A stretch of 64,000 nucleotides of DNA, taken from positions 9,920,001-9,984,000 of the forward strand of contig NC_090349.1 of assembly GCF_035084215.1 (NCBI RefSeq). Reading direction: 5' to 3'. The notes beneath the pieces are model-generated. The model was not told where the DNA came from and searched no databases. It saw nothing but the letters and a program-made list of their open reading frames with translations. Shown here in pieces: positions 7,170 through 60,465 of the stretch (position 1 is its first letter; each line of letters starts with the position of its first letter). A program made the translations under genes and the position numbers. Source of the stretch: Heptranchias perlo. Taxonomy: Eukaryota.

Positions 7170-7517
7170 TGCCCAGATTCAGCTTGGTTCCTCTCCCAAA
7201 AATGAATCTATCGATACTGCTGCTCCCCACACCACAGTAATAATCTGCGGCGTCCTCGGATTGTACGTTGGTGATGGTTAAATGCATCTTGTTGGTCGAC
7301 GAGTCCACAGATCCGGTGAAACGATCTGGAATCCCTGAAGCTGTACCGGAGCTCTCATACCAAACAAACACAGGGGCACTGCCGGGTTTTTGCCAGTACC
7401 AGCTCGCGAATAAGCTGCCGATATTGCCTCCGGACAGGGTACAGGTGATCTTGACGGTTTTGCCCGGGGTGGTTGAGATGGACGTTTCCTGATTCAGGAC
7501 TGGATCTGCGTTTGTAC
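7170..7517 (-). CDS. IGLV: Germline-joined V-J exon, Ig lambda cluster 1 (CDR3 GVGSSSIDRFI)
   Basis: Runs from a cag acceptor to an A|GTAAGT donor. TNA-DPVLNQETSISTTPGKTVKITCTLSGGNIGSLFASWYWQKPGSAPVFVWYESSGTASGIPDRFTGS...DYYC-CDR3-FGRGTKLNLG. Open frame, no RSS between V and J. Confidence 0.97.
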
Positions 7518-7650
7518 CTGGTGAAATAACAAGTTATTGATCAGTCACACTGGGAAATTCTGAATATTCTGATCTGTTCAACACAAAAAATAACAAAAAA
7601 TCAGGGCAATGTAAAAAACACCAATATTGAAGGTTAAGCCGTGTACTTAC

Positions 7651-7699
7651 TGTGGAGACAGAGCATCAATGCGGCGAGAACTCGAACCCATTCAGTCAT
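7651..7699 (-). CDS. IGLV: Leader exon, cluster 1 (MTEWVRVLAALMLCLH)
   Basis: ATG at 7697-7699, 49 nt, phase-1 GTAAGT donor, hydrophobic signal peptide. Confidence 0.95.
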
Positions 7700-7769
7700 G
7701 GTGAAGGTTTCGGTGACGGTCAGAAGCAAAATGTTTCCTGACATGAACGTGGTTCTGGGCTCTTTCTGA

Positions 7770-7890
7770 ACATCCTTAAGAAGTTTCAAACATTAGAACG
7801 TCACTGCGTATTAATTATTCATGCAAATCTCCCTCCACGTAACACGGCGCTGTTGGATCCCAGGTACTCGGCTGACTACTATTTGCATAA
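7770..7890 (-). promoter_or_regulatory. Ig light-chain promoter, cluster 1: proximal octamer 7821-7828, inverted second octamer 7881-7888, CRE half-site ~7798-7803
   Basis: + strand atgcaaat is sense ATTTGCAT (light-chain orientation), ~120 bp upstream of the ATG. A second perfect octamer in the opposite orientation lies 60 bp further upstream. Confidence 0.88.
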
Positions 7891-10109
7891 TGCTCATAGA
7901 ATACAACACGGGGATGTTTGAATACAGCAAAAGAAAAGCTGCGGTGAAATCGGGGGGAGCGATTAGGTGACTCCAGGCTTGGGTTTCGGAAGCCTGAAGT
8001 TTGCAATAGAGAGGAAAGGCTGTGGGCGGAATGATGTTGAATAGCTTAGGGGTCCTCAGAAAGATTGAATTAGAGGAGAGCGTGAGAAGAGTTTGGATTT
8101 GAACACAATGAAGAGTTAAGGAGGTGGAACAGCGCGCAGGGGGGTGTATTTGGGATTTAGGGGAACAATTTCGGAAAGTTCGCACTTGCCTTCTTTCACA
8201 CATGCGACCATATATTCAAAGTATCCCTTGAAATTTGGAAGTTCAGTTGTTTCTGCATACAGCGTTGAGCGTTGACTTCGTTCACACCAAGGGACGGGTA
8301 TGTCAAAACAGCATCATTTTCAACAATTTTAAAACAACGATCAAACATGAGTGAATAATTGATTGACTATTCTGCAGACACGCGCTGACATTTCATGCCT
8401 CCACAATCATTATTCCAACATGTAGATTATCACACTCAGCGGCGCAATTTATGAGAGCAGCTGAAATAACCGACATTTCCCTAAAAATAATTGATCGATC
8501 CGAGTTTGAATCCCGCCCAACCTGAAGGGATCAACGTATGCTCTCTGCTGACCCGAAGCATATGACTTGTACCGTGTTAGGAGTTGTTTGGTGCACTCGT
8601 TAGTGAGCTGAATCAACAGCAAAAGTAGACCATGACAAGACAAATTATAACGACATTGACAATCTCTCCCAGAGACCCAAAAGACTTTTGGAAATTATAA
8701 ATGCCACATTAGTGCAGTAGAGATACTGCTATGACGTTGGTTTAGAATACGGGAGGGTAATAATTCCCTTGGTCGTCTTTTTGTAGCAACATTAGGTTGA
8801 AAGTTCTGTACGTTTTTATTTTTCAGAGAAATCAGAAATGAATCTCATTTAGAACCTGCTTAGAATTTACTGGAAATTACGGAGCTGATGAAATCTTCAC
8901 TGATACATTTACAATGTCGCTACAAATAGCTTAATTTATGGTTTGTAAAGTTACGCACAATACATTAACACCTTGCGTGAGAATTGCTCTGGTCGCAAAT
9001 GTTTGTGTCGAATTATTTCCTTTTTCTGGAAATACTGAACAAGGGAAATCTTCACCATTGTACTGAGCATCCCTTAAACATAGTGACCAGAGGAAGTGAC
9101 AACCCATAGTGTCAATAGGGTGCTTGAGCGACACCCAACGTTCACAAGAGCTGAACCTGAGGCCACCAATGCCACACTTCACAGGCCCACGTGAGCTGAT
9201 TTACGGATACTCCTACGTAATTATGCGGCATGTCGAACACAGATAGGACGAGGCTTATAACTGTTCGGTTGATCTAATTGGTTTAGGGATAATTGTCCAA
9301 TCTCACTGGCCTTGACGTGCATTCTTCTGTTATAACCTTTTATTTTCCACAGTTTGCTTTTAAAATGTGTAAACGACTGAGGAAATCAATCGACAAAGCA
9401 GGCGAATAGACATTTTTACACCAAGTTTATATATCAAGTTCAGTCAGCTTACATATGTTAACGTTGCGTGGTATCCCGGGAGGGGAGAAGTCACACAGTG
9501 ATTTTGTATGGCACTGTTGAGAGCTACATGGACGGAATTGTGGATTGCCAATGACGACACCCAACAGCGGATCTGCCTTCCTCTAGGAAACTGGGTGTGT
9601 CTTTATCTACCCAATATCTAGGAAACTGCAATGTGAGCCAGGGATTAACCAAAGCAGCCTTGTACCAGTACTGGCGTGACCTCCTAATCCGTTTGTGGGC
9701 CGATGAAAATACATTGATCTGAAATTAGCTCAGACTGTAAACTAACAGGCAAATTTATTTAACGTTAAACAGATAATTGTACAGTACTCAGCATTGATAC
9801 ATACAGCAGTTTACACATTCCCAGTCCTCCTCCAAGTCTTTTCCAGTGCGGCAGTCTGGATGCTCGCTTTAAACTCCATAACCGGCTTCTGAGAAAAAGC
9901 CAGCCTCATATATATTTAACATCCTTTGAAGCTATACGAAACAAAGAGCATTAAAAACCAAATATCTCTAATTATATTAGACTGACAGCATTCACAGGTT
10001 GTCATTAGGTAGGATTTTAGTTCACACAAATGCTTCTGCCAATACAAGTTTAAAACATTTTTTTCGGTCTGTCTGCCTGTACCTGGCCATTGTGTTCGGC
10101 TGACCCAGT

Positions 10110-10932
10110 TTTTATTAATTCGTTCATGGGGTGTGTGCGTCGCTGGCGAGGCCAGCATTTATTGCCCATCCCGAACTGCCCTTAAGAAGGTGGTGGTGAG
10201 CCGCCTTCTTGAACCGCTGCAGTCCATGTGGTGAAGGTTCGCCCACAGTGCTGTTAGGAAGGGAGTTCCAGGATTTTGACCCAGCCAGGATGAAGGAACG
10301 GCGATATATTTCCAAGTCGGGATGGTATGTGACTTGGAGGGGAACGTGCAGGTGGTGTTGTTCCCATGTGCCTGCTGCTCTTGTCCTTCTAGGTGGTAGA
10401 GGGCGCGGGTTTGGGAGGTGCTGTTGAAGAAGCCTTGGCGAGTTGCTGCAGTGCATCCTTTAAACTAGAACTAGGGGGCATAATCTTAGAATATGGGGCT
10501 GCTCTTTCAAAACTGAGATGAGGAGAAACTTCTTCACTCAGAGGGTAGTAGGTTTGTGGAATTTGCTGCCCCAGGAAGCTGTGGAAGCTACATCATTAAA
10601 TAAATTTAAAACAGAAATAGACAGTTTCCTAGAAGTAAAGAGAATTAGGGGTTACGGGGAGCGGGCAGGAAATTGGACATGAATTTAGATTTGAGGTTAG
10701 GATCAGATCAGCCATGATCTTATTGAATGGCGGAGCAGGCTCGAGGGGCCGATTGGCCGACTCCTGCTCCTATTTCTTATGTTCTTATGTTCTTTGGATG
10801 GTACACACTGCAGCCACAGTGCGCCGGTGGTGAAGGGAGTGAATGTTTCGGGTGGTGAATGGGGTGCCAATCAAGCGGGCTGCTTTGTCCTGGATGGTGT
10901 CGAGCTTCTTGAGTGTTGTTAGAGCTGCACTG
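10110..10932 (-). mobile_element. Non-LTR retrotransposon 3' end (RT C-terminus), interrupted by a CR1 fragment
   Basis: TTLKKLDTIQDKAARLIGTP...HHRRTVAAVCTI then MHCSNSPRLL...SKSWNSLPNSTVG...LQRFKKAAHHHLL, ending in an A-rich tail. Confidence 0.75.
10461..10791 (+). mobile_element. Short 5'-truncated CR1 3' end nested in the LINE above
   Basis: gagatgaggagaaacttcttcactcagagggt... with a cttatgttcttatgttc tail; it splits the host element. Confidence 0.8.
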
Positions 10933-19318: not shown

Positions 19319-21839
19319 CTAAGTTGGAGCAGAGGTGGTGGCAGGGTGTTCTTGTTCATGCCATGACTGATTAGATGCTTTGGGCCTAAGCCCTCTGGCT
19401 TTTGGTGCCCGTGAGAGCCCCTTCAAGGAATGCTCCACCTGCACCTGTGCAGGGGCAGACTCGGCCACCTGGAGAGCAGGCAGCATTGCGGGTACTGTTT
19501 GAGAGGGGGGAACGGGTGATATGTGGGAGTGCTTTGAGTGGCGTCCCCAGTTCCATGTCCCCATTCGCCATCACCCCCCCGCTGGGCCAGGCCCACGCCA
19601 TTCCTAACACTTTGTTGGACAACAGTTTGGAGGACATGTGTGAAGCCTTGTAAGGCCAATGCTCGTATATCTGCCTGTCTGTTGAAGGCGGCAGAATGTT
19701 ATTCACTGTGAATCCGAACGGCCGTTATCAGGGCCTGAATGGACTCATTTGTGAGCTGTGCTTGAAGCTCAATGGAGGCTAGCCTTCCCTCCATCGCAGA
19801 CATTTCCGCAAATACCCATGACAGTATCTCAGAGATGCTCTCACGTTCCTGTGACAGTATCTCAGAGATGCCCTCACGTCTCTATGTCAGTATCTCAGAG
19901 ATTCCCTCCTGTACCTGTGCCACTATTCCACTCATGCAGGAGTTGGACTCCTCCATCCTCTGTGCTATTGTGGAGAGTGTGCATGGCACCTGTTCCAGCA
20001 CCTCACAAATGTACTGCTGCCCCTCGATCATTCTCCTTTTAATGGATGGCCCCCAGGATTCAGCATCTGTGTCCAGCTGAGCAGAGCCTGGAGAGGAGTG
20101 CTCCCACTGATGTGGACTCTCCACAGATGCCGCTGCCACCAGTCTCTGCTTGTGCTCACATGTGTGTGGTAACTCACCATGTGTGACCCCAACTGACAGC
20201 AGACCAGGATCCACCAAGGTGTGAGTATCTGCGCTGGTGGATGGCTTCCTCAGATGTGACGGTGCACCCTCAGAGGCCGGCAGGTCCTCTGAGGAATCGC
20301 CCTCTGCCATCACAGCAGTCACTGAAGGCCCTGTAAAAGTAGAAAAGGCAATATTAAGTATCATCACAGATGTGTCATGTTGCGATGAGTATAATGCAGT
20401 GCTGAAGATGGCAAGGCATGTTAACATCAATTCATATTGTGTGTGCTGAATGTTAAAGTTCTGTCACCAGATGTTTGTCCAGCACCTCCTGCTTGGCATC
20501 TGTGAGGATGACAATTTGTTGCATCACCCCCCGCCCCCCCAACCTCCGGTCCTTGCCCTCTCCCATGCATTCTCGGCTCTCTTTTCCTATAAGGGAAGAA
20601 AGTACAGATGCACGAGTGAGTGACGGTGTAGTGGCCAGCCGATGAATACATTGGCTTGGGTGCGGCTGACCGTGAAAGAGTTGCATCAGAGGGTGAGTAT
20701 GAGATAGAGCCATGACATTGTATGACAATCAGGCTGAGTGGTAGTGGTGGGTTGAGTAATGGGGAGGTGAGGAAGAGCTGAGAAAGTGCAGGTAATTTAA
20801 GGATGAGCCTTAAGTGGGTGTGGGGAGTGATGTGATGGAGTAGTGTTGGCAGTGCAGAATGAGTTGGGGGTCAGGGCGGTGATGTGGAAGAGAAATTGTC
20901 AGAGAATGAGTAAGTGTTCTAACGTTGGTTGACCTCGTTTGGTCATTGAAGCGCTTCCTGCACTGGATCCAGGTATGTAGCTGCTGCTGCTGGTGACCTC
21001 CTCTGCAACATCGAGCCAGGCCTTCTCGGTGGCAGAGGCAGGCCACTTCTTCCAGTCCGCCTGGTAGAGGATCTCTGACCTGCTCCTCCCTGTCCTCCTC
21101 CCTCTCCTCCCTCTCCTCCTCCTACCTGTCCTCCTCCTCCTCCCTGTTGTCCTTCCTCCCTCTTGTCTTTCCTCCTCCTCCTCCCTCTTGTCCTTTGTCC
21201 TTCCTCCCTCTTGTCCTCCCTCCTCCTCCTCCTCTCTCTTGTCCTCCCTCCTCCTCCTCGTCCCCCTCCTCCTCGTTCCTCATCCCTCCTCCACGTTCCT
21301 CGTCCCTCCTCTTCCCACCTCCACGTTCCTCGTCCCTCCTCCACGTCCCTCCTAGTCCCTCGTTCCTCGTCCCTCCTCATCCCTCGTCCCTCGTTCCTCG
21401 TCCCTCCTCCTCATTCCTCGTCCCTCCTCCTCGTGCCTCCTCCCTCCTTGTCCCTCTTCCTCGTCTCTCCTCCCTCTTCCTCGTTCCTCATACCTCCTCC
21501 TCGTCCATCCTCCTCGTTCTCGTCCCTCCTCGTCCCACCTCCTCGTTCCTCGTCCCTCCTCCTCTTTCCTCGTCCCTCCTTGTCCCTCTTCCTCATTCCT
21601 CGTTCCTCCTCCTCATCCCTCGTCCCTCCTCCTCATCCCTCGTCCCTCCTCCTCATCTCTCCTCGTCCCTCTTCCCTCCTCCTCCCTCCTCCTCCTCCTC
21701 CCTCCTCCTCGTTCCATGTCCTTCCTCGTCCCTCCTCCTCGTTCCTTGTCCCTCCTCCTCGTTCCTCATCCCTCCTCGTCCCTCCTCCCTCTTCCCTCTT
21801 CCTCCTCCTTGGAGCAGTCTTTCCCCTGAGCGGCTCCAT
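19319..21839 (-). pseudogene. Harbinger Myb/SANT-like gene (copy B), multi-exon, disrupted
   Basis: MEPLRGKTAPR from the ATG at 21837-21839, then repeat, then TWIQCRKRFND. A later exon follows the ttttacag acceptor at ~20331 (GPSVTAVMAEGDSSED...), with an 11-aa repeated coiled-coil-like segment. Confidence 0.75.
21077..21809. repeat. ~730 bp pyrimidine-rich compound microsatellite (CCT/CGT), paralog of 795-1781
   Basis: Directly visible. Same flanks as copy A but different length and internal order. Confidence 0.97.
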
Positions 21840-22884
21840 TGTGGTTTGTGTGTGTTTGCTCCAGGAGCAGCCATTCGAGGACCACCCCTTTAAATAGAGC
21901 TCTCCAGCTGAGAGCCTGTGATGGGGGTGCGCAGACCGCCCGCTGTGCAACTTTCGGACGGCAAACCGGGAAGTCACGTTAAGTGGCACCAATTGACCTG
22001 CGATCACGTGGGAAACGGACATATTTCATTGGGCTCAATCACCGCCCAATCATCACCCCCCCTCCCCTGCTGCCTTCCCGCCTCCACTCTTATATCGGGG
22101 TGTAGCTTGGTGACAAATTTTGTTTGCTAATGCTCCTGTGAAGCGAATTAAGGCGTTTTACTACGTTAAAGGTTCTATATAAATTCAAGTTGTTGAAAAC
22201 TCTCAAGCTTTTTATTCTCAGCACATTTGAAGTTTGATCAATATTTATTCTTAGCAGTGAGTGCAACACAACATTACCGTGATATGTATGTGATTTCTTA
22301 CTGAGATCAGTCTGAACAAAGAACACTGAAGGGATACAGAGTTTGTGATTAGTGTAAAGGCGACTGTAAAAAGCGCGATTCTTTTTTGGACTGATTTCAG
22401 TAACAATTCTCAGTGAAAGTGTAATTACTTCCGGTCTGAGTTGCTGCCCGCAGCACCTGCTTCAGTGTGAAGGATCGCTGAACAACGATAAAAGGAATCG
22501 AACCGGATTGAAAAATAAAATCTTGCAAAGTCAGAAATTGCAGCGCGAAAGCACCTGGACGCTCAAAGCGGAGGCCGTCACATTTTGGCCCTGAATTTTT
22601 GTCAATGGATGATTTCGTAAATCTTGCGCTATGTTCTTTCAATTATTGTCAGAAACACACGGACACACAGTTCAGCCGGTTCCCCACACCGATAGAATTT
22701 TAAGAAATCTGGTCCAAAAAAAATACTGTATGATTTATTTCACGAAATTCCCAACTAACAGACATCCATCGTGTCTGTAATCTCACTGATCAGACTGATT
22801 TCGCTGACTTTACATAAAATGTGCAGAACGTCACAAAGAAAACCTCAATCATCAGTTGCTGGAGATTGGAAGAGTCATTTTATT

Positions 22885-23981: not shown

Positions 23982-24094
23982 TTATACTGCGGCATTTGTA
24001 ACCGCCAGCGGGTTAACGCGGGCAAGCTGCACATCTGTTGTTGTAATTTGAAATGTTCCACTTGAAATCAAACAGGTAATATCTGAATCATGAA

Positions 24095-24100
24095 TTTATT
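24095..24100 (-). terminator. Polyadenylation signal AATAAA, cluster 2
   Basis: tttatt on +, conserved position. Confidence 0.8.
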
Positions 24101-45435: not shown

Positions 45436-45567
45436 CTGGTGAAATAACAAGTTATTGATCAGTCACACTTTGCAATTCTGAATATTTAGATCTGTTCAAC
45501 TGAAGCACAGTAAAAAATCAGTGCAATGTAAAAAGCAGCGATATTAAAGGTTAAGCCGTGTACTTAC

Positions 45568-45616
45568 TTTGGAGACAGAGCATGAATACGGCGAGAACTC
45601 GAAGCCATTCAGTCAT
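45568..45616 (-). CDS. IGLV: Leader exon, cluster 3 (MTEWLRVLAVFMLCLQ)
   Basis: ATG at 45614-45616; GTAAGT donor. Confidence 0.95.
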
Positions 45617-45689
45617 GGTGAAGGTTTTGGTGACGGTTAGCAGTAAAATGTTTCCTGAGAAGAACGCAGTTCTGGGCTCTTTCTAAATC

Positions 45690-45810
45690 TCCTTAAGAAG
45701 CTTCAAACATTGCAACGTCACTGAGAATTAATTATTCATGCAAATCTCCGTCCACGTGACATGATACCATAGGCTCCAAGGTACTCCACTGACTATATTT
45801 GTATAATGCA
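45690..45810 (-). promoter_or_regulatory. Promoter, cluster 3: octamer 45738-45745, E-box CACGTG, degenerate distal octamer (ATTTGTAT)
   Basis: Motifs read directly. Confidence 0.85.
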
Positions 45811-48800
45811 CATTCCAGACATTTTTTAAAAGTTGAGTAACAATGAGTCAAAGTCATAGAGTACAACACGGGAATGGTTGAATACAGCAAAATAAAAGGT
45901 GCGGTGAAACAAAGGGGAGCGATCAGGTGACTCCAGGCTTGGGTTTTGGAAACCTGAAGTTTGTAATAGCGAGGAACGGCTGTCGGCGGGAGGATGTTGA
46001 ATGGTTTAGGGGTCCACAGAGAGAATGAATTAGAGAAAGAGAGTTTGAAATGAGTTTGGATTTGTACACAGTGAGGAATTAAGGCGGTGGAACAGCGCGC
46101 AGAGGGGTGTATTTTGGGGTTAGGTGAATAATTTAGGAAAGTTCACATTTGTTTCTTTCACATATGTGACCATACATTTAATGTATCCCTTTGAAATTTG
46201 GAAGTTCCGTTGCTTCTGCATACAGGGCTGATTGTAAGCTTGATTCATACCAGAGAAGGGGAATGTCAAAACTGCATTATTTTCAACAATTTTAATACGT
46301 GTTAACAAATATGAATGAATCATGTAGTGAATAACCCAGAGTCAAGCGTTGACATATCGTGCCTCCACATTCATTATTTGGACGTGTTGGTTATCCCGTC
46401 CAGCGGCACACTTCTTGGGGGCAACTGAAATAATTGACATTTCCCGAAAGGAATTGATTCAACCGAGTTTTCATCCAGCCCAATCAGAAGGGATAAATAT
46501 ATTCTCTCTGCTGACTCGAAACATCTGACTTGTATTGCGTTAGGAGCTGTTTGGCCAACTTGTTCGTGAGGTGAATCAACAGCAAAAGCAGCGCGTGATT
46601 CAACACAAATTATAACACAATTGTCAGTCTCACTCAGAGACCCAAAAGAAGTTTGGGAGTTATAAATGCCACACTAGTGCAGTTGGGATGCTGTTATGAG
46701 GCTGATTTAGAAGGCACGAGTGTAATAATTCCTATGATCGCTTTTTTTGTAGCAACAAAAGGTCGAAGGCTCTGTACGTTTTTACATTTCCGCGAAACCA
46801 GAAGTGCATCGCGTTTAGAACGTGCTTAGAATTTCACTGGACACATCGGAACAGAAGGAATCTTCACCGATACATTTAGAGTGTCGCTACAAATAGCTTA
46901 ATTTATGGTTTGTAAAGCGACGCGCGATACAATAACACTTGGCGTAAGAATTGCTTTGGTCGCAAATGTTTGTGAAGAATTCTTTATATTTTCTAGAAAT
47001 ATTGAATAAGAGAAATCTTCACCGAGCACCCGTAACACATACTGACAAGAGGAAGTCTCAATACATAGTGCATCATGTTGCCTGAGCGACACCCAGCGTT
47101 CACAAGAGCTAAACCTGGAGCCACCAATGCCACACTTCACAGGCCGCATTAGATGAAATACGGTCACTCCCACATGGCAATTATTGCGCATTTAGGGCGA
47201 CGCTCAGTGTTATATGGTTGATCTCATTGGTTTATTATAATCGTCCAATCTCACTGATTTTATTCAATATCTTGCATCGCACTCTACACTGGGCGTTGAT
47301 GAACATATTTCTGTTATAACCTCTAATTTTCCATGGTTTGCTTTTCAAATGTAAAAAGGACTAAGGAAATCAATCGACAAAGCATGCGAATAGCCAGTTT
47401 TGCACCAAACATTTTTCAGGTGAAGATGAAGATTGTGCTGCAGTTTGATCCATCTCTACCGGCAAACCCTTTAAAATCTTCTGAATTTGGCACTCTTGTA
47501 CTTTCATTCTTATTAAATTAAACCGACATTTATATATCGGATTCACTCAGCCGACACGTGTTTACATTCCGTGGTATCGGGGGAGGGGAGAAGTGACTTT
47601 GTCTGGCGCTTTGGAGAGGCCAAATGGAGGGTATGGTGGACTGCCGCATGGCGCTCTGCGAGGTTCAGGCTGCTGCTTGTTGCCGGTTGGTATTTTCACA
47701 CTACACATACTCCTTGGATTCAATGTCAATGACGACACCCACGAACGGATCTGCCTTCCTCTCCGAACGAGGAAGTGACTTTATCTGCTCAATATGAAGG
47801 AAAACACAATGTGATCCAGGGATTGACCAATGCTGCCTTTTATATGTGCTGGCCTGACCTCCTAATCTTTTTGTATCTGAAATAAGCTCAGACAGTAAAC
47901 CAACCGACAAATGTATATAACGTTAAACATATAATTGAACAGTACTGAACATAAATACATATAGCAGTTTGCACACTTCCCCATCCTCCTCCGTGTTTTC
48001 TCCTGTGCGCTCTCTGGACATAAAATTGATCCTGTAAACACCGTCGTTCACTTCTTTAGTGGAGAAATGCCACCAGAGAGCTCGCTCTATCTCAGTCTGG
48101 ATGCTGGCTTTAAAATCGCTTCGTGACTTCTGAGGAAAAGGCAGCTCATATATATCATTTAACATCCTTTGAGGATATACTGAAACAAAGAGTATTAAAA
48201 ACCAGATCTCTCTAATTATATTAGACTAACCACATTCACAGCTTGTCAGTAGGTGGGATGTTAGTCCACACAAATGCCTCTGCCAATATCATAAATTTCA
48301 GAAGAATTCTTAGGTCTGTCTGCCTGCACCTGGCCATGGCGTCAGGTTAACGTAGTTGAACAGAAAAACATGTAAGTGGCTTCTGAATGATACCTTTCGC
48401 ATCTCAGGCTGTGATCTATGACGAAAACTTGCATTTACATAGTCTGGTGGTGCGAACGGCACGTTTGAGGGTTTCAGTGTCAGATGGGCTGAGATAGGGT
48501 CTGAAAGGCCTTGCAGTACTCAATGTTAATCCTGTACGTAAATTGACTGGGAATTAAAGAATCAGTGGTTAATTTTAATGAGAATGATGCTTTCTTTTGG
48601 TCACAGCACGCTTAATTTTTGAAAGGTTCTTTGCATTCGAGGCCTGTGCCTTTCTTGGGAGTACCATGTACAATGTGGCGACATACCACCCTCCCTGTCG
48701 ATCATTCAGTGTGTCATGATTCGATCGGCTACATAAAGCAGGCGTTTCAATCCAAACCCTGGCCCGGAACGTTACATGGTGTAAAACGATCTTCTGGCCA

Positions 48801-49193
48801 TTCCTAAGGAGATGAGAGGATGTTTCCAGGATAAAATGTCTCTTTAAACATGGACTGCTCTACAGGTTTGAGCTCTTTCTCTGCCATCCCCTAATCCTTT
48901 GGATGCGGTCAATTTGCTGCACCTCCTTCAGTCCCACTTGCAGGATAGGGGTATCACAGATTTATTTGTACGTACAACCGGCTGCTCTGCATGAATCTAT
49001 CACAAGTCTGTCATCTGAAATCCCGCTGGGCTCCTCACTCTATCCAAGTGGATGAAGTCCACGATCGTGCATCAACTGCTCATTCACCTATCAGTCTCAT
49101 TGTTGAAATGCTCTTTCCTTTTAGTTCAAGCGTATGTCAGTTTTCCTTCACCCAACCGTGAATTTTTATGGAACGACGATGTGTTGACATCAG

Positions 49194-52100
49194 TGTAGAA
49201 ATTCGATCACGCCCAAAAACTAGCGCGCAAGTGCAAAGTGCGCGCTACACGAGCATCTTCACCTACGCTGAAGAACAGTGTTAAATTCGTGCAGGCAGAT
49301 CATTACAATGAGTAAAGGCTACCCTCACTGCTTATTGGCGTCCCTCCTGTTTGTGGGGGAGGTGGGTGTTATTGGGAGTCGGGCGTCGTCGGCGCCGCTT
49401 ACAGGCAGCCAGCACCTCCTCAAGGGGAGCTGCAGCCAGAGTTCAGAGTAACTTCACAATATCGACAAATGGCTGCATGAGGTACAGTGAGTGCAGACAC
49501 ATTCTCTGCTATCGCATTGGGGGCCTGGTCCAGGCATCCAATCTTGATTGGGGGGGGGGGGAGCTGGAGGAGGAGAAAGCCCTCCAGGCAACATCTCTGC
49601 CGCCAGTGGGAAGAGATTGCCGAGGTGATCAATGCCAGGAAATTAGCTCCAAGTCTGTGGCTTTAATACCATGACCCCACCAAAATTATGGGGGGTTACC
49701 TCTTACCTCTCACCTCAATTATTCTCTCCTCACACCGACAGCCAAACTACCCTCCCGCGGTTCCATACACTCCTTTAGGATCACTGCATCACATTTCACT
49801 CCACCTCTTTCTCCTCCTACTCAAACTCTGCACTTCCCAGTCGCACCACTATTGCAACCCTCACTTCTCTACACCCATGCTGCACACAGCATCAACACAT
49901 TCGCAAAAGATCTCACCTGGCTGTCACTAACACACTTCCTTCTTTCATGCAGGAAAAGGGCACACACAACACGAGGCAGCAGGCCGCGACCATCGGAGGC
50001 CATGCCCGCCTGTGCACACTTTCCCCACTTGAGGATGACAGGCTGGCTATCACCGGCAGCATGGTGACTGGCAACGCTGGAAGTGATGTCGTCAGGGTTT
50101 CTTCATCCCTCATCTTTTTCCCGTCTTCTATCTTATCCGACACACTGCATGGCTACTGTAGTTGTTTTCACCAGCCACTCATCTCTCTCTTCTCTTCCTT
50201 CACACGTAAAGATAACCCTTCCATTGCAACTCACACGGCTGACATCTTGACTCTGGGGACACAGAGCCGTAGGAGAGATGAGGCATGTCCCAGGAGAGTG
50301 GTCTCAGCTGAGTCGGAGAAGCACTTGCTCCTGCACCACCCATCCAGCCAGTGCTCTTGTTAGTGCCACGTAGACAGCTGGCCCAGGCATCCTTGTTCCA
50401 CAACAAGATGCTGCAGTCTGTAGCTGAGCCCTCAAGGCCCCGCTCACCACCACAAACCTGGAATCACAGCAAGGACTGTAGTGTAGAGCTTCCCCGGAAC
50501 TGTTCAGGCTGCAGACGCGATGCTTAGCACACCGAAGATCTGTCCAATTATATTTCTGGTAGTGGCATGGCTCTCGTCGTAGGCCAGTTCTGTGTCTGTG
50601 CACGGGTTCTCGACAGGAGTGTTGAGCCGCGATTGAAGGGGATATTCCTTATCGCCCAGTAGCCAGCGTGTGCCCAGGCAGCCTGGTTGGATTAAAGGCA
50701 GCATAGAGGACTGGCACAGGAAGAAGGAATTATGACTGCTGCCAGAAACCTGGGCACGGACCTGCATTTTTCCCGTTAGCTATTATGAACTTATGGAAAA
50801 GAGTTGTTTCGGCAATTTTTTCTGGATTTGGTGTTGTTGTAATGGAGTGAGGGTAAACCGATAAAGCTTGACTGAAGGAAAGCAATCAGGTGTTGGTACA
50901 AAGGGCGGTGGTGATAAGAATTGCGGGACTGTTGGTGCATTGGGTATGTGGGAAGGGGGTGATTGAGCTGATCGGTCGCCCAAAGCCCTGACAGCGAGGG
51001 GCACTGCTGGTCGATGCTGCTCCTGCTTTTCCTCCTCCTCCACGCATGCAAGAACGGTACTACTATAATCATGGGTGACTTTAATCGACATATAGATTGG
51101 TCAAACCAAATTAGCAATAATACTGTGGGGGAGGAATTCCTGGAGTGTGTACGTGATGTTTTTCTGGACGAATATGTTGAGGAACCAAGTCGAGAAAAGG
51201 CGATCCTGGACTGGGTATTGTGCAATGAGAAAGGATTAATTAACAATCTTGTTGTGCAGGGTCCCTTCGGGAAGAGCGACCATAACATGATAAAATTCCT
51301 CATTAATGTGGAGAGTGAAGTAGCTGAATCTGAAACTAGGTTCCTGAATCTAAATAAAGGAAATTACAAAAGTATGAGGTGTGAGTTGGCTATGATAGAT
51401 TGGGGAAATTTACTAAAAGTGTTGACGGGGATAGGCAATGGCTAATATTTAAAGAATGTGTGCAGGAATTACAACATTTATTCATTCCTGTCTGGCGCAA
51501 AAATAAGACAGGAAAGGTGGCTCAAACGTGGCTTACAAAAGAAATTAGGGATAGTATTAGATCCAAAGAGGAGACATATAAAATTGCCAAAAAAAGTGGC
51601 AAGCCAGAGGATTGGGAGCAGTTTAGAATTCAGCAAAGAGGACAAAGAGTTTGATTAAGATGGGAAAATAGAGTATGCGAGTAAACTAGCAGGGAACATA
51701 AAAACTGACTGTAACAGCTTCCATAAATATGTCAAGAGAAAAAGATTAGTGAGGACAAATGTCGGTCCTTTACAGTCAGTAATGGGAGAAATTATAATGG
51801 GGAACAAAGAAATGGCAGAACAATTAAACACATACTTTGGTTCTGTCTTCACAAAGGAGGACATAAATAACCTGCCAGAAATGTTAGGGAACCAAGGGTC
51901 GAGTGAGATGGAGGAACTGAAGGAAACTAGTATTAGTAAAAAAATAGTGCTGGGGAAATTAATAGCTGACAAATCCCCAGGGCCTGATAATCTACATGCC
52001 AGAGTACTAAAGGAAGTGGCCTTGGAAATAGTGGATGCGTTGGTGATCATCTTCCAAAATTCTATAGATTCTGGAATAGTTCCTACAGATTGGAGGGTGG

Positions 52101-54110
52101 CAAATGTAACCCCACTATTTAAAAAGGAGGGGGGTGGGAAACAGGGAATTACAGACCAGTTAGCCTCATGTCAGTAGTGGGGAAAATGCTGGAGTCTATT
52201 ATAAAATATGTGATAACAGAGCACTTGGAAGGCATTAACGGGATTGGACCATGTCAGCATGGGTTTATGAAAGGGAAATCATGCTTAACAAATCTACTGG
52301 AGTATTTTGAGAATGTAACTCGTAGAATAGATCGGGGAGAACCATTGGATTTTTAGAAGGCGTTCGATAAGATCCCACACAAGAGACTAGTGTGCAAAAT
52401 TAAAGCACATGAGATTGGGGGGAATATACTGGCATGGATTGCGAATCGGTTGACAGACAGGAAACAGAGAGTAGGAATAAACGGGTCTTTTTCCGGGTGG
52501 CAGGCAGTGACTAGTGGGGTACCGCAGGGATCAGTGCTTGGGCCCCAGCTATTTACAATATATATCAATGATTTGGATGAGGGAACTAAATGTAACATTT
52601 CCAAGTTTGCAGACGACACAAAGCTGGGGTGGAATGTGAGCTGTGAGGAGGATGCAAAGACTCTCCAATGTGATTTAGACAAGTTAGATGAGTGGGCAAG
52701 AACATGGCAGATGCAGTATAACGTGGATTGATGTGAAGTTATCCACTTTGGTTGTAAAAACAGAAAGGCAGATTATTATCTGAATGGTGATAGATTGGGA
52801 AAAGTGTCGGTGCAAAGGGACCTGGGTGTCCTTTTACACCAGTCGCTGAAAGTGAGCATTCAGATGCAGCAAGCAGTAAGAAAGGCGAATGGTATGTTGG
52901 CCTTCATTGCAAGTGGATTTAAGTAGAAGAGTAGAGATGTCTTACTGCAGTTATACAGGGCCTTGGTGAGACCACATCTGGAGTATTGTGTGCATATTTG
53001 GTCGCCTTATCTGAGGAAGAATATCCTTGCCATGGAGGGAGTGCAACAAATGTTTACCAGACTGATTGCTGGGATGGCAGGACTGACGTATGAGGAGAGA
53101 TTGAGTCGACTAGGCCTATATTCACTAGAGTTTAGAAGATTGAGAGGTGATCTCATCGAAACATATAAAATTCTAACAGGACTAGACAGACTAGATGCAG
53201 GGAGGATGTTCCCGATGGCTGGCGAGTGCAAAACCAGGGATCACAGTCTCCGGATACGTGGTATGCCATTTAGAATCGAGATGAAGAGAAATTTCTTCAC
53301 TCAAAGGGTGGTGAATCTATGGAATTCTCTACCACAGAAGACAGTGGAGGCGAAGTCATTAGATGTATTCAAGAAGGAGATAGATATATTTCTTAATGCT
53401 AAAGGGATCAAGGGATCTGGGGAAAAAGCGGGAACAGGCTACTGAGCGAGACGATCAGCCATGATAATTTTGAATGGCGGAGCAGGCCCGAAGGGCCGAA
53501 TGGCCTACTCTTGCTCCTATTTTCTTTGTTTCTATGTTAAATCTTGATGCCCAAGTCGTGGTAAGGGTTGGTCCCACAGTATTGCAAAGTTGTGCAGCGC
53601 ACGACCACAAATCTGGAAACGTTGTCAGGGCTGTAGTGCCGAGCTCCTCACGAAAGGCCCAGGCAGCAGAAGCGATGCTTGTGCACACCGGAGGTCTGGC
53701 CAATTATATTATTGGTAGTGGCATGCTTCTCGTTGTAGATCAGCTTTGTTCAAGCGATCCTGTCAGAAGTCATGTGCCATGTCGGGAGGGGCTACTCCGT
53801 GCCACCCAGTTGCCAACCTGTGACCTGACAGCCTGGTTGGAATAAAAGCAGAGCAATGGACTGGCTCAGGATGAATTAATCATGTCTGCTGCCTGAAACT
53901 GGGCACAGCCCTGCATGATGTAATGCATGTGATCAGAAACAAGTTGGACATTTTCCGATTTGCAGTTTCGTGAAATCTGCTCCACAGCGACCCTGCTGGT
54001 GAGAGAAGGGGCTTCTCTTTCAAGTGCACTCAAACGGCAGTGAATTCCATCAAAACAGCTTGCCGTCCTATTATGCACCGGAAATGCCGCAAAAATAAAT
54101 AAAATGTAAT
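49194..54110. mobile_element. Old degenerate Harbinger relic (duplicate of 34051-39548) split by a CR1
   Basis: QVSGSSHNSFFLCQSS...WLLGDKEYPL at 50504-50767; colinear with 34051-39548 apart from deletions. Confidence 0.7.
51044..53538 (+). mobile_element. 5'-truncated CR1 LINE, same insertion as 36463-38974 (co-duplicated)
   Basis: Same 5' junction (cctcctcc..gcatgcaagaacggtact) and 3' junction (tctatgtt|aaatcttgatgcc). Confidence 0.93.
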
Positions 54111-55632
54111 CTAATACAGGGATTATCGGCGTATGTTGGGTTGGGAAGAACTAACTTTGTACAACCTGGAATTGTCTCTGAAATCTCCCGAACTCATTGT
54201 TCTCAGCACATTTGAAGTTTGATTAATATTATTCTTATCAGTGAGTGTCACATCACATTACCATGATCTAATACCATGTGATTTCTTAAGGAGATCAGTC
54301 TGAACAAATAACACTAAAGGGATACAGAGTTTGTGATGAAGGTGAATGTGAATGTAAAAAGCGTGACAATTTGCTGGACTGGTTTCAGTAAAAAATGTTA
54401 ATGGAATTGTAATTACTTCCAATCTGAGTTGCTGCCCGTCTCACTTGGTTCAGTGTTAAGAATTGCTAAACAAGGATAAAAGGAATCCAATTGAAAAATA
54501 AAATCTTGCAACGCCAGAAATTGCAGCGCCCAAATACCTGGACAATCAAAGCAGAGGCTGTCACATTTTGGACCCCAATTTGTGTCACCAGATGATTAAG
54601 TCAAACGTAAACGAGGTTCTTTCAATTATTGTCAGAAACACACGGATACACAGTTCAGACGGTTCCCTACACCGTTCGACTATAAAGAAATCCGGTTTCA
54701 AAAATATGGTACCACTGTACATATCTGGCAACAACCTGAACGTCGACTCTCTTGGTACCTCTTTATATATTGACTCACTCTCACAGACCCTTCTTTGTGC
54801 ACAAATCTTTGAAGGTGACAGGTCAAGTTGAGAAGGCTGTTAAAAAAGCAAATGGGTTCCTGGGCTTTATCAATAGAGGCATAGACTACAAAAGCAAGGA
54901 CGTTATGTTAAACGCTTAGAAAGCAAAGGTTAGGCCTAAGTTGGAGAATTGTGTTCAGTTCTGGGCATCACACTTGAGGAAGGATGTCAAAACCTTACAG
55001 AGGGTGCAGAAGAGGTTTACTAGAATGGTACGAGGGATGAGGGACTTCAGTTATGTGGCGAGATTGGAAAAGCTGGGGTTGTTCTCCTTAGAGCAGAGAA
55101 GGTTAAGAGGGGATTTGATGGAGGTGTTCAAAATCATGAACGGTTTTAATAGAGTAAATAAGGAGACACTGTTTCCAGTGGCAAAAGTGTCGGTGACAAA
55201 AGGATGCAGCTTTAAGGTGATTGGCAAAAGAACGAGAGGCGGGATGAGGAAAAATAAAATTACTCCGCAAGTTGTTGTGATCGGGAATGCACTGCCTGAA
55301 AGGGTAGTAAAAGCAGGTCCAATAGTAATTTCCAAAAGGGAATTGGATAAATGCTTGAAGAGAAAAATACTGGACTATGGGGAAATAGCAAACGAGTGGG
55401 ACTAATTAAATAGTTTTATCAAAGAGCCGGCACAGACACAATGGGAGGAATGGCCACCTTTGCTGATTCTAGGGTTCTATGATTACACTGCGCTATTTGT
55501 AAAGTTACAATGAAGCTTTGACCAAGTCACTGAAAGATAGAGCCAGAGGGCTAACGCGCGCAATCTGTACATCTGTTGTTGTGATTTGAAATGTTCCACT
55601 TAAAATCAAACAGGTAATATCTGAATACGAAA

Positions 55633-55638
55633 TTTATT
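55633..55638 (-). terminator. Polyadenylation signal AATAAA, cluster 4
   Basis: tttatt on +, conserved position. Confidence 0.8.
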
Positions 55639-55681
55639 TTAAATGAGAATGTATAACAGATCAATACATAAGATTCTTGAA

Positions 55682-56004
55682 TCAGATACAGCTGGATCTC
55701 GCGATGCTTGTTTGAAGCGGGTTTGTCTGAGTCTCGTGTTTCACCACACAGGAGTAAAGCTCGTGTGAGTTCCAGTCTGAGGCTGCCAGAGTCAGATAAC
55801 TGCTCGCACTGAACGTGTTGTCCGTCTCCTGCTGGACCCGACTGGTCTCAACACCATTCCCTCTGACACTGCCATCTACAGTCCACTCAATCTCCACAGC
55901 ACCCGGGTTAAAACCGTTCACCAAACACACCAGGGTCGCCTTGTTCTTTTGCGTTATTTGATCCGATGAAGGCGGAAGAACGGACACCGAGGGGGCCCGA
56001 GGAT
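55682..56004 (-). CDS. IGLC: Ig lambda constant exon, cluster 4 (gene = complement join 60273-60225, 60091-59750, 56004-55682)
   Basis: cag acceptor; PRAPSVSVLPPSSDQITQK...SIARSSCI*. Confidence 0.97.
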
Positions 56005-57477
56005 CTGAAAAGTAGAAACAAATGAAAGAAGATCCAATCTTAATTGACATAAAAGTCGTAATCAATGTTGTACTTTCCCAAATCTTTTAAACTTCGGCGT
56101 TACTCCACAAATGTATGAAGAATATCTTTGGTTTGAAGAATACAACGGAACCAAATTAGTGTCAATTGTACAATGACAGGAGCCCGCAGTTCTAGAAAAT
56201 ATATAACCTGAGAACTTTTCCTATTTTTCATACGTGGAAAGGAACAAATAACAATTATTTAAATGAAATACAATCTAACTTATTGAATATGCTATGATAT
56301 GAATTTAATAGCATTCCTCAAAGTCATTAAATTTCTTTCGTTTTTTTCTGCTATATCCTTTCCCCATTAAAGTTTAACATGTCACTAAGAATATTTCTAT
56401 ATTTCGTGGAATCATAGACTCTTACAGCACAGAAGGATCCGTGCCTGTGCGGGCCCTTTGAAAGATCTGTCCAATTAATCCCACTTCCCTGCTCTTCCGC
56501 CATAGCTTGGCAAATGTTTCCTTTTCAAGTATATATCCAATTCCCTTATGAACGTTGCCAATGAATCTGCTTCCACCCCATTTCAGGTAGTGCAATCCAG
56601 ATGATACCAACTTGCGGTGTAAGAACATTTCTCCTCACCTCCCCTTGTTCTTTTGCCAATTATCTGAAATCCGTGTCCTTTGGTTATCGACCCACGTGCC
56701 AGTGGGAAGAGTTTCACCCTATCTACTCCATCAAAACCCGTCACAATTTTGAACATCTCTATTAAATTTCTCCTTAACTTTCTCTGCCCTAAGGAGAACA
56801 ATACCAGCTACACTCGTCTCTCGGCATAACTGAAGTAACTGTCATTAGGAATATTTCCATATTTGTGAAGGAATGGGGTCAGAAAATAATAAAACATAAA
56901 AATAACACCGCACACAGTATGGCATTCAAATGTATCGGTCGGACTCAATCCGTTACAGACATTGTGTCCGACGAGCAGTGGATTTAAAGCGAAAGTAAAC
57001 AGCAATAAATTCGAATTTGGGATCAATATTGGAACCAATGCTGACTACAAAAATACAGTAATATATTTCATTCAAAACACTCGATTCTAATAAATCTCCT
57101 GCTAATTACGATTGTTTGCTTCTGTCTCTAGTTCCGCGCCACTTTTGACGGAAATGGTAAATATTCGACTAACATTTGGGCTTGAGTAGAAGTACTGCCA
57201 CGGCCGCTCTGCTCGGCTCGTCATTTCTACAAGGCTTCCTGTCCCTGTCGGACAATGAGTACATTGTGTAAAAGTTCAAAAGACTTTTGGAATAATTCTA
57301 CCACACTCGAAATACGATATTAGGAGACTGATCCGATGTCAAAGTGTCACAAAGTTAATCTTTCACTACAGACAAACAGTTTCCAACAAGTAACGACTGT
57401 TATTGGAAACAATTATATCAATATTATAAAATAATATCCCCAAAATAACCTCAATATGAAAGTACAATGGCAAAAAT

Positions 57478-57695
57478 GTCCTGGCCAATATATCCCTCAA
57501 TTAACATCACTAAAACAGATTATCTGCTCATTATCACATTGCCGTTTGTGGGACCTTGATATGCGCAACTTGGTTGCCGCGTTTCCAATATTACAACAGT
57601 GACCATTTCAAAAGTGCTTCATTGGCTGTAAAGCACTTTGAAACGTCCTGAGGTCGTGAAAGGCGCTATATCAGTGCAAATTCGTTCTTTCTTTT
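57478..57695 (+). mobile_element. SINE 3' half in J-C intron 4
   Basis: Ortholog of 5687-5905. Confidence 0.6.
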
Positions 57696-58194
57696 CTTTG
57701 TGAATATTAAGCAGGCATATTCCCATGGTAATGACAATGAAACATAATCCAGTGTAAGAATTTTGAAGCCGGGCTGTCACAATGCCTTGTCTCTTTAAAT
57801 GACTCTCACCCTAACCTGAATGTCGCGTTCCCACTGATCATGTATCACATGCACCAGCGACCAATGATAAACCCTCGGTAAAATTGTTTATGTAGTGAAA
57901 AGCGTCGAAGAAAAGGCTGAAATATTAATAACGTTTTCAATCGTAGAAATAGGTATCAGAGGCTGAGCCGCTACAAATGTTTCTGGTACCGTGTCAGGTA
58001 GAGCAGCGCGTTTTACAATGCCGGGATTGTCCGGGTCGGTTTAACTATCTATTGCCAGTCTGAGACGTTCGCCTTGGAACCTACAACATCCCCTTGCTTT
58101 CTTTACATTATAATTTGGAGGCTGAAACCACAAGTAGTCCCGACAATAGCCAACATCCCCTATTGTCACAGTTGATAAAGTCCCTCTGCAACAC

Positions 58195-59111
58195 CCGGAA
58201 ATTAGCTTAACATTCTCATATGAAATATCGGGAGTCCTGTGGGATTATTAAGCAGATTTTACTGTCAATTTAAATTATTGTCTAAACGTCAAGAATTTGC
58301 CAATGAACTCCCTTTACATTGGTTTGGAATGTAATTTTTTCAGATATAAATTCTTAATGGAACAACTGATGATATAATGGAAGATTTTTTTCTGTTTGAT
58401 GTCCCATGCTAGCTGGTTCCACCCTGATGTAGTCGAATAACCAAGTTAAAATAGCGATAGAGTGTTCGCATCTTCTGTAATATTCCTCCTCTTGCTGACA
58501 CTAATCACAGAACCAGCATTAAAGCGCAATGGAGTGAGTACAAAAGCAGGTACAAAAATCGGAAAGCCTATTCTGAGACATTATTCACACAAAATTGATC
58601 GCAGAGTAAGATAATGAGTCCGTGTCTTGTTAAAAATAGACATCCTGCCAATAATTGATGTTTATTACCGCGTTATGCCGAAAATCGATCAGTGTGAATG
58701 ATTATTACTTGCTGAACTGAACTCAACAGTATGATTGCTATAGCCATCCGGGATTCATGCGAAATGTAGAAATGAGAACCTTGTACTGAACGGTTTTCAC
58801 TGAGTTTGGAGACAAGTGGAAGTGAGTTACACCAAGTGGTCACACCATCCTCCCACGGCCTCAGCCCGAGAATGGTTATTATATCTCGGGAGTGCTTTAA
58901 GGGGAATGAAAACGCTATCGTGTGAAACTTTTGAATTTTTTTTAGCCTTTTCCAACAATTAATTCCAGCGGGGCTGTAAGGATAGGGTGTAAAGGGAGTT
59001 CACTGGCAAACTCTTGACGTTTAGACAATAATTTAAAATGACAGTAAAATCTGCTTAATAATCCCACGGGACTCCCGATATTTCAATCGAGAATGTTAAA
59101 CTAATTTCTGG
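58195..59111. repeat. ~120-bp inverted repeat in J-C intron 4 (58195-58318 vs 58988-59111)
   Basis: aaagggagttcactggcaaactcttgacgtttagacaataatttaaa... is the reverse complement of ...tttaaattattgtctaaacgtcaagaatttgccaatgaactcccttt. Confidence 0.92.
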
Positions 59112-59749
59112 AAGACTTCGTGGGATTCATAGAATGATAGTATTATACGGCTCAGAAGGAGGGCGATCGCGCCCATCCACTTAGTCCATTTCCGATACAC
59201 TTTTTTCCATTTTCCAATGTTTATCCACTTCCCTTTCAAGCCCTACCACAGATTCTGCTCGACCACTCTTACAGGTACAACACTACCCTAACAGTCCCTT
59301 AAGTAACGAAAATATCCAAACCTCTCCCTTCGTCCTTCTCGTAACAAGATTAAATTTATGGCCTTTGTTTACCAACTGACTGATCAGTGAAAATCGTTCT
59401 TTTTTAATTTCCTGGCTATCTCTTAAATATCACTGAACGCTGATTCATAAGCTCTGTATAAATAATATTAAGGACAATAATCTTGATTTACACTAACTTA
59501 ATCTACCAAGAAAATGATTTCAAGGGTTTTTTTTTGGTATTTCGCCCGCAATGTTGCAAATGTTAGGGGAGAGTTTGACGAGCGCTTTAGAAACCGAAAT
59601 TTAAGAAGACATTGTCGCTGTAATCACCATGAGAGACTCGGACACTGATATTTTTTGAACCAAGGAATTTCAACTCAAAGAATTAAATCAACGATCGAAA
59701 ACTGGCAGCTGACAAATCCCAAGTTGCACAATGCGAATAATTTACTTAC

Positions 59750-60091
59750 TGCCCAGATTCAGCTTGGTTCCTCTCCCGAAGGTGAATATTGGGTTTTTCC
59801 ACACACCACAGTAATAATCGGCGGCGTCCTCGGATTGCACGTTGGTGATGGTTAAATGCATCTTGTTACTCGATGAGTCTACAGATCCGGTGAATCGATC
59901 TGGAATCCCCGGCCCTCTGGTGGAGCTCTCATACCAAACAAACACAGGGGCACTGCCGGGTTTCTGCCAGTACCAGCTCGTGTAGCAGCTGCCGATGCTG
60001 CCTCCGGACAGGGTACAGGTGATCTTGACGGTTTTGCCCGGGGTGGTTGAGATGGACGTTTCCTGATTCAGGACAATATCCGCGTTTGTAC
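59750..60091 (-). CDS. IGLV: Germline-joined V-J exon, cluster 4 (CDR3 GVWKNPIFT; extra Cys in CDR1)
   Basis: TNA-DIVLNQ...GGSIGSCYTSWYWQKPGSAPVFVWYESSTRGPGIPDRFTGSVDSSSNK...YYCGVWKNPIFTFGRGTKLNLG; canonical splice sites. Confidence 0.97.
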
Positions 60092-60224
60092 CTGGTGAAA
60101 TAACAAGTTATTGATCAGTCACACTCTGTGCAATTCTGAATATTTAGATTCGTTGAACGGAAGCACAATGAAGGTTAGGGCAATGTAAAAAGCAGCGACA
60201 TTGAAGGTTAAGTCCTGTACTTAC

Positions 60225-60273
60225 TGTGGAGACAGAGCATCAATACGGCGAAAACTCGAACCCATTCAGTCAT
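60225..60273 (-). CDS. IGLV: Leader exon, cluster 4 (MTEWVRVFAVLMLCLH)
   Basis: ATG at 60271-60273; GTAAGT donor. Confidence 0.95.
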
Positions 60274-60344
60274 GGTGAAGGTTTTGGTGACGGTCAGAAG
60301 CAAAATGTTTCCTGACACGAACGTAGTTCTGGGCTCTTTCTAAA

Positions 60345-60465
60345 CCCCCTTAAGAAGTTTCAAACGTTACAACGTCACTGTGGTATTAATTATTTATGCA
60401 AATCTCTAGCTAGGTTACATGGCGCTACAGGGTCCTAGGTCCTGCGCTGACTGATATTTGCATAA
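60345..60465 (-). promoter_or_regulatory. Promoter, cluster 4: octamer 60396-60403 and inverted octamer 60456-60463
   Basis: Two perfect octamers 60 bp apart, as in cluster 1. Confidence 0.88.

Follow-up and report, generated by a model that had tools for sequence, protein, structure and literature searches.

How a family of light-chain genes that are all joined in the germline keeps varied third complementarity-determining regions (CDR3s) without rearrangement is a long-open question, and it is raised again by 64,000 nucleotides of DNA from Heptranchias perlo (contig NC_090349.1, positions 9,920,001 to 9,984,000 of the forward strand; this whole stretch is called the window below). The window holds four light-chain clusters, arranged head to tail on the minus strand. 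Each consists of an octamer promoter, a leader exon, an in-frame joined exon of one variable (V) and one joining (J) segment, and one constant (C) exon. All four clusters are intact and their VJ exons are open, V and J being fused in frame in the germline. Judged by the names of their relatives, they appear to be members of a known family, the cartilaginous-fish immunoglobulin (Ig) light-chain lambda genes (type II/NS3). Their V and C translations match H. perlo proteins (Table 1), the last residue of the V exon being completed by splicing, and four more H. perlo relatives were found as proteins only, which brings the paralogues to at least eight. A scan of both strands of the window for recombination signal sequences (RSSs) gave a single loose match, at 61636, inside an insertion and far from any V, and no split (unjoined) relative was found near the four genes. 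We propose, with a probability of roughly 0.68, that the flanks of these genes were made mosaic by repeated ectopic conversion or unequal crossing-over, likely resolved in the near-identical framework region (FR), J and C exons, and that CDR2 and CDR3 are probably far older and likely under selection.

After alignment of the four complete units, 6147 well-aligned four-way columns were used for site counts. Among the 435 informative sites, 277 group the units as 1+2/3+4, 146 as 1+4/2+3 and 12 as 1+3/2+4. Their order along the alignment is not random: the sites fall into 41 runs, where 20000 permutations gave a mean of 210 and a minimum of 170. The upstream flank carries 132 sites for 1+4/2+3, versus 4 and 1 for the other groupings; the J-C intron carries 125 sites for 1+2/3+4, versus 7 and 5; and the 3' flank carries 123 for 1+2/3+4, with 0 and 0 for the other two. 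In likelihood partition tests, 1+4/2+3 was favoured by 211 log units in the upstream flank, and 1+2/3+4 by 153 log units in the J-C intron and by 376 in the C exon and 3' flank. The interval 5083-6400 was left out of the partition tests but kept in the all-column test and the site totals; there is no informative site from 5540 to 6400. It was later realigned, the first whole-unit alignment having paired unit 1 with the wrong copy of a duplicated intron piece in unit 2. The partition tests reject one tree, and a single tree for all four units is refuted.

The first-pass annotation of this DNA had gone further, stating that all three groupings are supported within about 600 bp. Its letters were read correctly: the leaders are WVRV..LMLCLH in units 1 and 4 and WLRV..FMLCLQ in units 2 and 3; the ACG/ACA split in FR1 and the intact or broken distal octamer (ATGCAAAT, confined to units 1 and 4) divide the units in the same way; CDR2 is identical in units 1 and 3, with AGA GGC TCG in unit 2 and AGA GGG CCG in unit 4, and FR3 has GTA or GTG; the CDR3 lengths are 11, 11, 9 and 9; and C has GND or GNG. 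The conflict that it described is real, but the three groupings carry very unequal weight. Support for conflicting trees within those 600 bp alone is weak: 1+2/3+4 is not rejected for leader to FR2 (approximately unbiased (AU) test, p 0.31), and no tree is rejected for CDR3-J (p 0.11-0.24). GND/GNG had been taken as support for 1+3/2+4; it is one of 19 informative C sites, at the level of the intron background (5/137), and is therefore not evidence for that grouping. Finally, the upstream identity of units 1 and 4 is 82.5%, near the 81.3% of units 1 and 2, and that of units 2 and 3 is 96.1%, which indicates that the 1+4 grouping reflects shared old states and that the recent pair is 2+3.

Exchange between clusters in the germline, as the first-pass annotation had supposed, is borne out by the tracts themselves. 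They are long, have conflicting trees and sharp ends, as expected of ectopic gene conversion or unequal exchange, and units 2 and 3 change partners along them. Unit 3 is unit-2-like upstream and unit-4-like downstream. Unit 2 is unit-3-like through FR2 and unit-1-like just after J, and triplet scans place its switch between FR2 and J, within the V exon, where breakpoints had been anticipated. The longest tract joins two spacers of about 15 kb, S1 and S2, which share 94.5% identity over 13200 columns without the gappy interval 32667-33724 and 93.8% over 14000 columns with it. It is bounded by a CDR2-CDR3 block at each end, and in the flanking 400-column windows that hold CDR2-CDR3, identity is down to 84.8% and 88.0%. 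Divergence between S1 and S2 is patchy, with 8 to 45 differences per 500 columns (chi2 105.6, df 25), which fits several events that differ in age. Two further tracts are shared by units 1 and 2. One covers the C exon and 3' flank, begins about 50 bp into the J-C intron from the edge of the C exon, where identity falls to about 80%, and the other is the 270 bp after J, which ends in unit 1 where sequence is deleted by comparison with units 3 and 4; between the two tracts, the introns of units 1 and 2 are 80.6% identical. In unit 2 this J-proximal intron holds a duplication, the copy B of which is 86.8% identical to unit 4 and 77% to unit 1, and which is likely the footprint of an out-of-register exchange. 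Taken together, the exchanged tracts comprise kilobases of promoter, intron and C region and are 2-7% diverged, a divergence that argues for old events.

The S1/S2 tract is almost one repeat period long, as it would be if one unequal crossover had duplicated a 15.4-kb unit, leaving unit 3 as a chimera of units 2 and 4, with the CDRs then point-mutated under strong selection and the 1+3/2+4 signal due to homoplasy. That signal is indeed small: it consists of a block of 4 sites, 2 of them silent, in CDR2-FR3 (spanning 80 columns and counted in 120). Its permutation p is 0.0002-0.003 and its AU p 0.021, for an interval picked after the block had been seen, and single-tree simulations with extreme rate variation reached 4 such sites in 40 and 47 of 3000. 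CDR3 differences are also mostly replacements, 11 versus 1 silent between units 1 and 2 and 7 versus 1 between units 3 and 4, and FR3 differences are mostly silent, a pattern that also counts towards our own reading. We nevertheless consider one duplication quite unlikely. CDR2 and CDR3 of unit 3 would then have to descend from unit 2 or unit 4; identity to these two units is, however, 72% and 62% in CDR2 and 48% and 70% in CDR3, versus about 95% in the flanks. The two separate tracts of units 1 and 2 and the uneven divergence are left unexplained, and the CDRs would need to have converged on motifs found in distant sharks and rays.

The CDR2 of unit 3 is identical to that of unit 1 at 21/21 bases. 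At silent FR3 sites, units 1 and 3 differ at 3/23, units 2 and 3 at 2/23 and units 1 and 2 at 3/23; units 1 and 3 are thus no closer than other pairs, so that a recent transfer of CDR2 between them is possible rather than established. Third-position identity in CDR3 was considered as a sign of recent common descent and set aside, since one silent change in 7 sites fits an old divergence too. As separate observations on these exons, adjacent differences in FR1-FR3 number 15/26 versus 4.5 expected between units 1 and 4 and 10/20 versus 2.7 between units 3 and 4, and 5/7 changed codons in the CDR3s of units 1 and 2 are double changes; the excess recalls the tandem hypermutation of sharks, and is confounded by codon selection and age, the recent flanks also having about a twofold excess. 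Unit 4 has an additional cysteine in CDR1 (GSCYTS, near 59986), which is absent from the other three units.

We then compared the four genes with related proteins, 77 of 80 of which (at least 199 residues) were aligned, the rows being representatives of 90% clusters found with unit 3 as query. Leader, FR1 and C group by species in these proteins. In a tree of these parts (72 rows, after removal of five with missing or odd ends), one clade was formed by six H. perlo genes (SH-aLRT, an approximate likelihood-ratio support value, 95), and the gene with a 5-residue CDR3 was sister to these six (SH-aLRT 95). In a tree of the CDR2-CDR3 block (74 rows), the six genes were dispersed (6 changes, shuffled mean 5.9). 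The CDR2 type with the residues RG occurs in sharks, rays and chimaeras. The xAS type was found in sharks and rays, and chimaera has a non-RG type related to it; CDR3 classes likewise recur in sharks, rays and chimaeras. The CDR3 of unit 3 agrees at 8/9 residues with white shark P0010 and at 4/9 with its neighbour, and the best five matches of the unit 4 CDR3, as well as the best four of the unit 2 CDR3, all come from other species. The tryptophan class of unit 4 and the best CDR3 match of unit 2 are present in rays; the split of the batoids is put at 200 million years or more by Lee et al. (PMC2193156). Since the CDR3s of units 3 and 4 resemble two different cross-species classes, their equal length is in itself not shared descent; independent ancient joins can give CDR3s of equal length.

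Several results weigh against our reading and are collected here. DNA is at hand for 4 of the at least eight paralogues, and donor, direction, and conversion versus crossover are not separable in it. The CDR classes were defined after the alignment had been viewed, from rows that are related and in part derived from cDNA. For the CDR2-CDR3 block, a tree that holds the H. perlo genes together as one clade was 34.8 log units worse over 58 columns and yet was not rejected by the AU test (p 0.149), so that the trans-species origin of the loops is not proven; this is where our reading is weakest. On the FR tree, the label of the AVxxSGIxT class (SG9) and that of the short class are weakly clustered or unclustered (45 and 33 of 500 shuffles as low). 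Rate variation could also produce the uneven divergence of S1 and S2. No contig of the sequencing runs described below links CDR2 to CDR3 in phase, or CDR3 to the intron.

The first-pass annotation had drawn from the mosaic that recombination in the frameworks freely reassorts the CDRs, as a heritable substitute for combinatorial V-J joining. Some evidence is of the kind that this would leave. Four genes show four combinations of CDR2 type and CDR3 length, units 1 and 3 share CDR2 and have different CDR3 classes, and tracts end inside the V exon. CDR3 classes occur on differing lineage-specific frameworks across the family. On the FR1-FR3 tree of 64 elasmobranch proteins, the class with 5-6 residues in CDR3 was rejected as one clade, marginally (p-AU 0.043). 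The sawfish proteins P0033 and P0045 are 89% alike in FR1-FR3 and have different CDR3 classes. Both results also support the reading that we prefer. P0022 and P0032 (catsharks), together with P0033 and P0045, carry an AVxxSGIxT CDR3 on CDR2-FR3 types otherwise paired with a 5-residue CDR3; the catshark and sawfish cases are likely CDR3 swaps at the end of FR3, and chimaera proteins have an RG CDR2 with short and with SG-like CDR3s. As a side observation, P0006, an H. perlo protein from outside the window, is itself a mosaic, with a leader like unit 1, FR2 like unit 3 and the CDR2-FR3-CDR3 class of unit 4. The order of such genes could not be taken from accession numbers, a series that also follows protein length, and no neighbour was assigned.

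Free reassortment is nonetheless unlikely in our judgement, and the idea of a substitute for V-J joining was overstated. The four combinations of the window already exist in other cartilaginous fish (27, 5, 8 and 20 proteins, chimaeras included). The AVxxSGIxT CDR3 goes with a non-RG CDR2 in 15/15 proteins from 11 other elasmobranchs. In elasmobranchs other than H. perlo, an RG CDR2 accompanies 0/7 CDR3s of the short class, 12/18 of the tryptophan class and 9/15 long CDR3s; the pairing of CDR2 with CDR3 is not random (Fisher p 5e-5, for rows that are not independent). Swaps occur, but under constraint. The silent FR3 sites of units 1 and 3, the 2-7% divergence of the kilobase-long tracts and the number of paralogues found, eight, also speak against free shuffling. 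The process is likely a slow mixing in the germline rather than a stand-in for antibody gene assembly. A related idea, which we hold as tentative and somewhat short of even odds, is that the CDR3s are fossil V-J joints older than the split of sharks and rays, kept as a handful of trans-species cassettes that exchanges in FR3 or J, filtered by selection, carry from one framework, promoter or C region to another, so that only CDR2-CDR3 pairs of compatible structure survive. If true, a combinatorial repertoire would be unfolding on an evolutionary time scale.

Ectopic exchange in a tandem array is an ordinary process, and germline gene conversion and concerted evolution have general cases in tandem Ig and other gene families. 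In the mosaic-flank reading that we prefer, neighbouring units would mispair out of register by one repeat, and resolution in the most similar exons would copy the flanks between genes. Exchanges that erase a distinct CDR2-CDR3 block would be lost by selection, and the longest tract to survive would then span the full spacer from one block to the next. Breaks within FR3 or J, which would be less frequent, would pair a CDR3 with another framework and CDR2. Acting from one generation to the next, over evolutionary time, the process would make promoter, leader, FR1, intron and C evolve in concert around binding loops that are shared across species; the diversity of these genes within one animal would stem from somatic hypermutation, not from exchange. 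This suggests an answer to the question raised above, in which old joints are preserved and their surroundings homogenised within each species, and it is testable in chromosome-scale shark genomes. It would also mean that gene ages and orthology will be misjudged in trees of shark lambda genes that are built from C regions or whole proteins.

An assembly in which copies were collapsed or fused into chimeras could likewise produce mosaics, and we examined the sequencing runs with this in mind. Eight runs contain the region, all of one sample and kept as contigs; they are possibly the source of the assembly, and none is recorded as RNA. Stretches that are identical between units (39 bp in J, at least 50 bp in FR3) interrupt their contigs, which do not phase across FR3 or J. 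However, DNA contigs match the flanks of unit 3 with 0 differences over 425, 353, 236 and 221 bases, contigs 28700-29189, 29214-29319 and 29290-29396 cover the junctions of the intron duplication of unit 2, and one 88-base contig runs through the end of FR3, CDR3 and J of unit 2 with 0 differences. The putative parents differ by 4-6% over kilobases, no unit is a copy of another, and the discord of CDR class with framework is seen in proteins of other species too. An assembly artefact is accordingly very improbable. The junction of the J-proximal tract of unit 1 with its deletion appears as a loose end in four DNA runs. Two details are evidence neither way: 29498-29611 has no contig cover at 97% likeness, and the own letter of unit 3 at 45388 is absent from the DNA contigs. 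Contig 28700-29189 shows 4, 3, 4 and 0 differences from the window in runs X1-X4, a pattern suggestive of heterozygosity.

In two runs, guessed to be RNA, leaders are joined to V and C sequence follows J, though these joints are not assigned to a single unit, and variant contigs number in the thousands. These putative RNA contigs are in keeping with expression and hypermutation of the family; somatic hypermutation has been described for shark V regions in the reviews cited here (PMC4279169, PMC5192425). At 45388, a site specific to unit 3, the putative RNA contigs largely lack the alternative letter, in 30-40% of depth. There is a weak hint that unit 3 may be expressed, though the promoters of units 2 and 3 are without the distal octamer.

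Table 1. Gene parts and shared tracts of the four light-chain units, in window positions
Feature	Position	Strand	Remarks
C exon, unit 1 (C1-set)	3891..4213	-	protein match P0008
Joined VJ exon, unit 1	7170..7517	-	CDR2 ESSGTAS 7356-7336; CDR3 GVGSSSIDRFI 7233-7201
Leader exon, unit 1	7651..7699	-	
Promoter, unit 1	7821..7888	-	proximal octamer ATTTGCAT 7828-7821; intact distal octamer ATGCAAAT 7888-7881
C exon, unit 2	24144..24466	-	protein match P0011
Joined VJ exon, unit 2	29673..30017	-	CDR2 GSSRGS 29856-29839, one codon shorter; CDR3 GATLSSAAAFN 29736-29704
Leader and promoter, unit 2	30150..30327	-	leader exon 30198-30150; proximal octamer 30327-30320; distal octamer broken
C exon, unit 3	41251..41573	-	protein match P0004
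Joined VJ exon, unit 3	45094..45435	-	CDR2 ESSGTAS 45274-45254; CDR3 AVAKSGIVT 45151-45125
Leader and promoter, unit 3	45568..45745	-	leader exon 45616-45568; proximal octamer 45745-45738; distal octamer broken
C exon, unit 4	55682..56004	-	protein match P0007
Joined VJ exon, unit 4	59750..60091	-	CDR2 ESSTRGP 59930-59910; CDR3 GVWKNPIFT 59807-59781
Leader and promoter, unit 4	60225..60463	-	leader exon 60273-60225; proximal octamer 60403-60396; intact distal octamer 60463-60456
Spacer S1	29858..44874		FR2 of V2 via promoter, intergenic DNA and C3 to near J3
Spacer S2	45276..59520		from FR2 of V3 almost to J4; pairs with S1
C exon and 3' flank, unit 1	1..4262		95-99% to 20273-24513, the C/T-rich array excepted
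C exon and 3' flank, unit 2	20273..24513		partner of 1-4262
J-proximal intron, unit 1	6902..7170		95.2% to unit 2 29404-29673; 98.2% over the distal 167 bp
Duplication in J-proximal intron, unit 2	28880..29570		copy A 29332-29570, unit-1-like; spacer of about 220 bp; copy B 28880-29111

Several other elements lie between and within the units. The J-C intron of unit 2 has a 1.15-kb insertion (25065-26212) with a ATCATAGA repeat at one end; a copy in inverted orientation lies upstream of unit 1 (12219-13365) and shares 97.3% identity with the insertion, and we presume the insertion to be a young fragment of a long interspersed nuclear element (LINE). An insertion of 1.6 kb upstream of unit 4 (61315-62915) is absent from the other units and contains the loose RSS-like match. 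C/T-rich tandem arrays with a period of 10-30 are found at 794-1781, 21079-21809 and 17763-20463, in a GC-rich element near both ends of the interval between units 1 and 2; Pfam gave no match for three open reading frames (ORFs) in this array element, and 4/5 of the non-Ig ORFs tried were without a match. S1 carries a reverse transcriptase fragment at 37833-38447 on the plus strand (RVT_1, E 1.5e-10), which has a partner in S2.

The assignment to lambda is by the names of relatives, and the automatic 'lambda-1-like' names are not isotype calls. The 77 matches are named lambda, light chain or unnamed Ig proteins and come from sharks, rays and chimaeras. P0004 (unit 3) and P0023, a sandbar shark chain named Ig lambda, are identical at 185/235 residues (79% over 235 residues). 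An initial assignment to sigma-2 was dropped after the lambda-named matches and this alignment, and a search of solved structures returned human-type antibody chains only and gave no isotype call.

Both the genes and the process are known, and the instance itself is apparently undescribed: the literature searched, to which most subscription papers and key older works did not belong, held no account of shark lambda genes whose flanks are homogenised within a species around CDR classes shared between species. According to two reviews (PMC4279169, PMC5192425), V and J are joined in the germline in every lambda (type II, NS3) gene of cartilaginous fish, and NS3 is given as non-rearranging elsewhere (PMC2435157). 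Our units resemble these type II/NS3 clusters in their V-J-C organisation, their fused V and J and their several copies; the accounts in the reviews cover the joined state and gene numbers, whereas the mosaic flanks and cross-species CDR3 classes are those of the present locus. The joined type I (sigma-2) genes of skate (Anderson et al., 1995; PMC2192082) are likewise an all-joined family, with differences concentrated in the CDRs and an excess of replacements, but they are of another isotype with at least 89 clusters, and the abstract of that work makes no mention of exchange. For NS4 (kappa), Lee et al. (2000; PMC2193156) describe germline joining by RAG activity in germ cells, and such independent joins offer an origin for distinct CDR3s and make CDR3 length prone to homoplasy. 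In contrast to NS4, where the joints are recent and have split relatives, no split relative or RSS lies near the genes here, and the CDR3 classes look ancient. A patchwork of V sequence is also made by gene conversion in chicken Ig genes, which is somatic, draws on pseudogene donors and acts in each B cell (PMC2193156, PMC3308330); here it would be in the germline, kilobase-long and between intact genes. Germline gene conversion and concerted evolution in tandem Ig and other gene families are similar in process, recombination, duplication and gene conversion being named among the forces on Ig loci (PMC3308330). The likeness lies in homogenised tracts between neighbours that end in highly similar exons, and the difference is that the units in H. 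perlo are whole pre-joined genes, so that a CDR3 already complete can be carried along by an exchange within FR3 or J.

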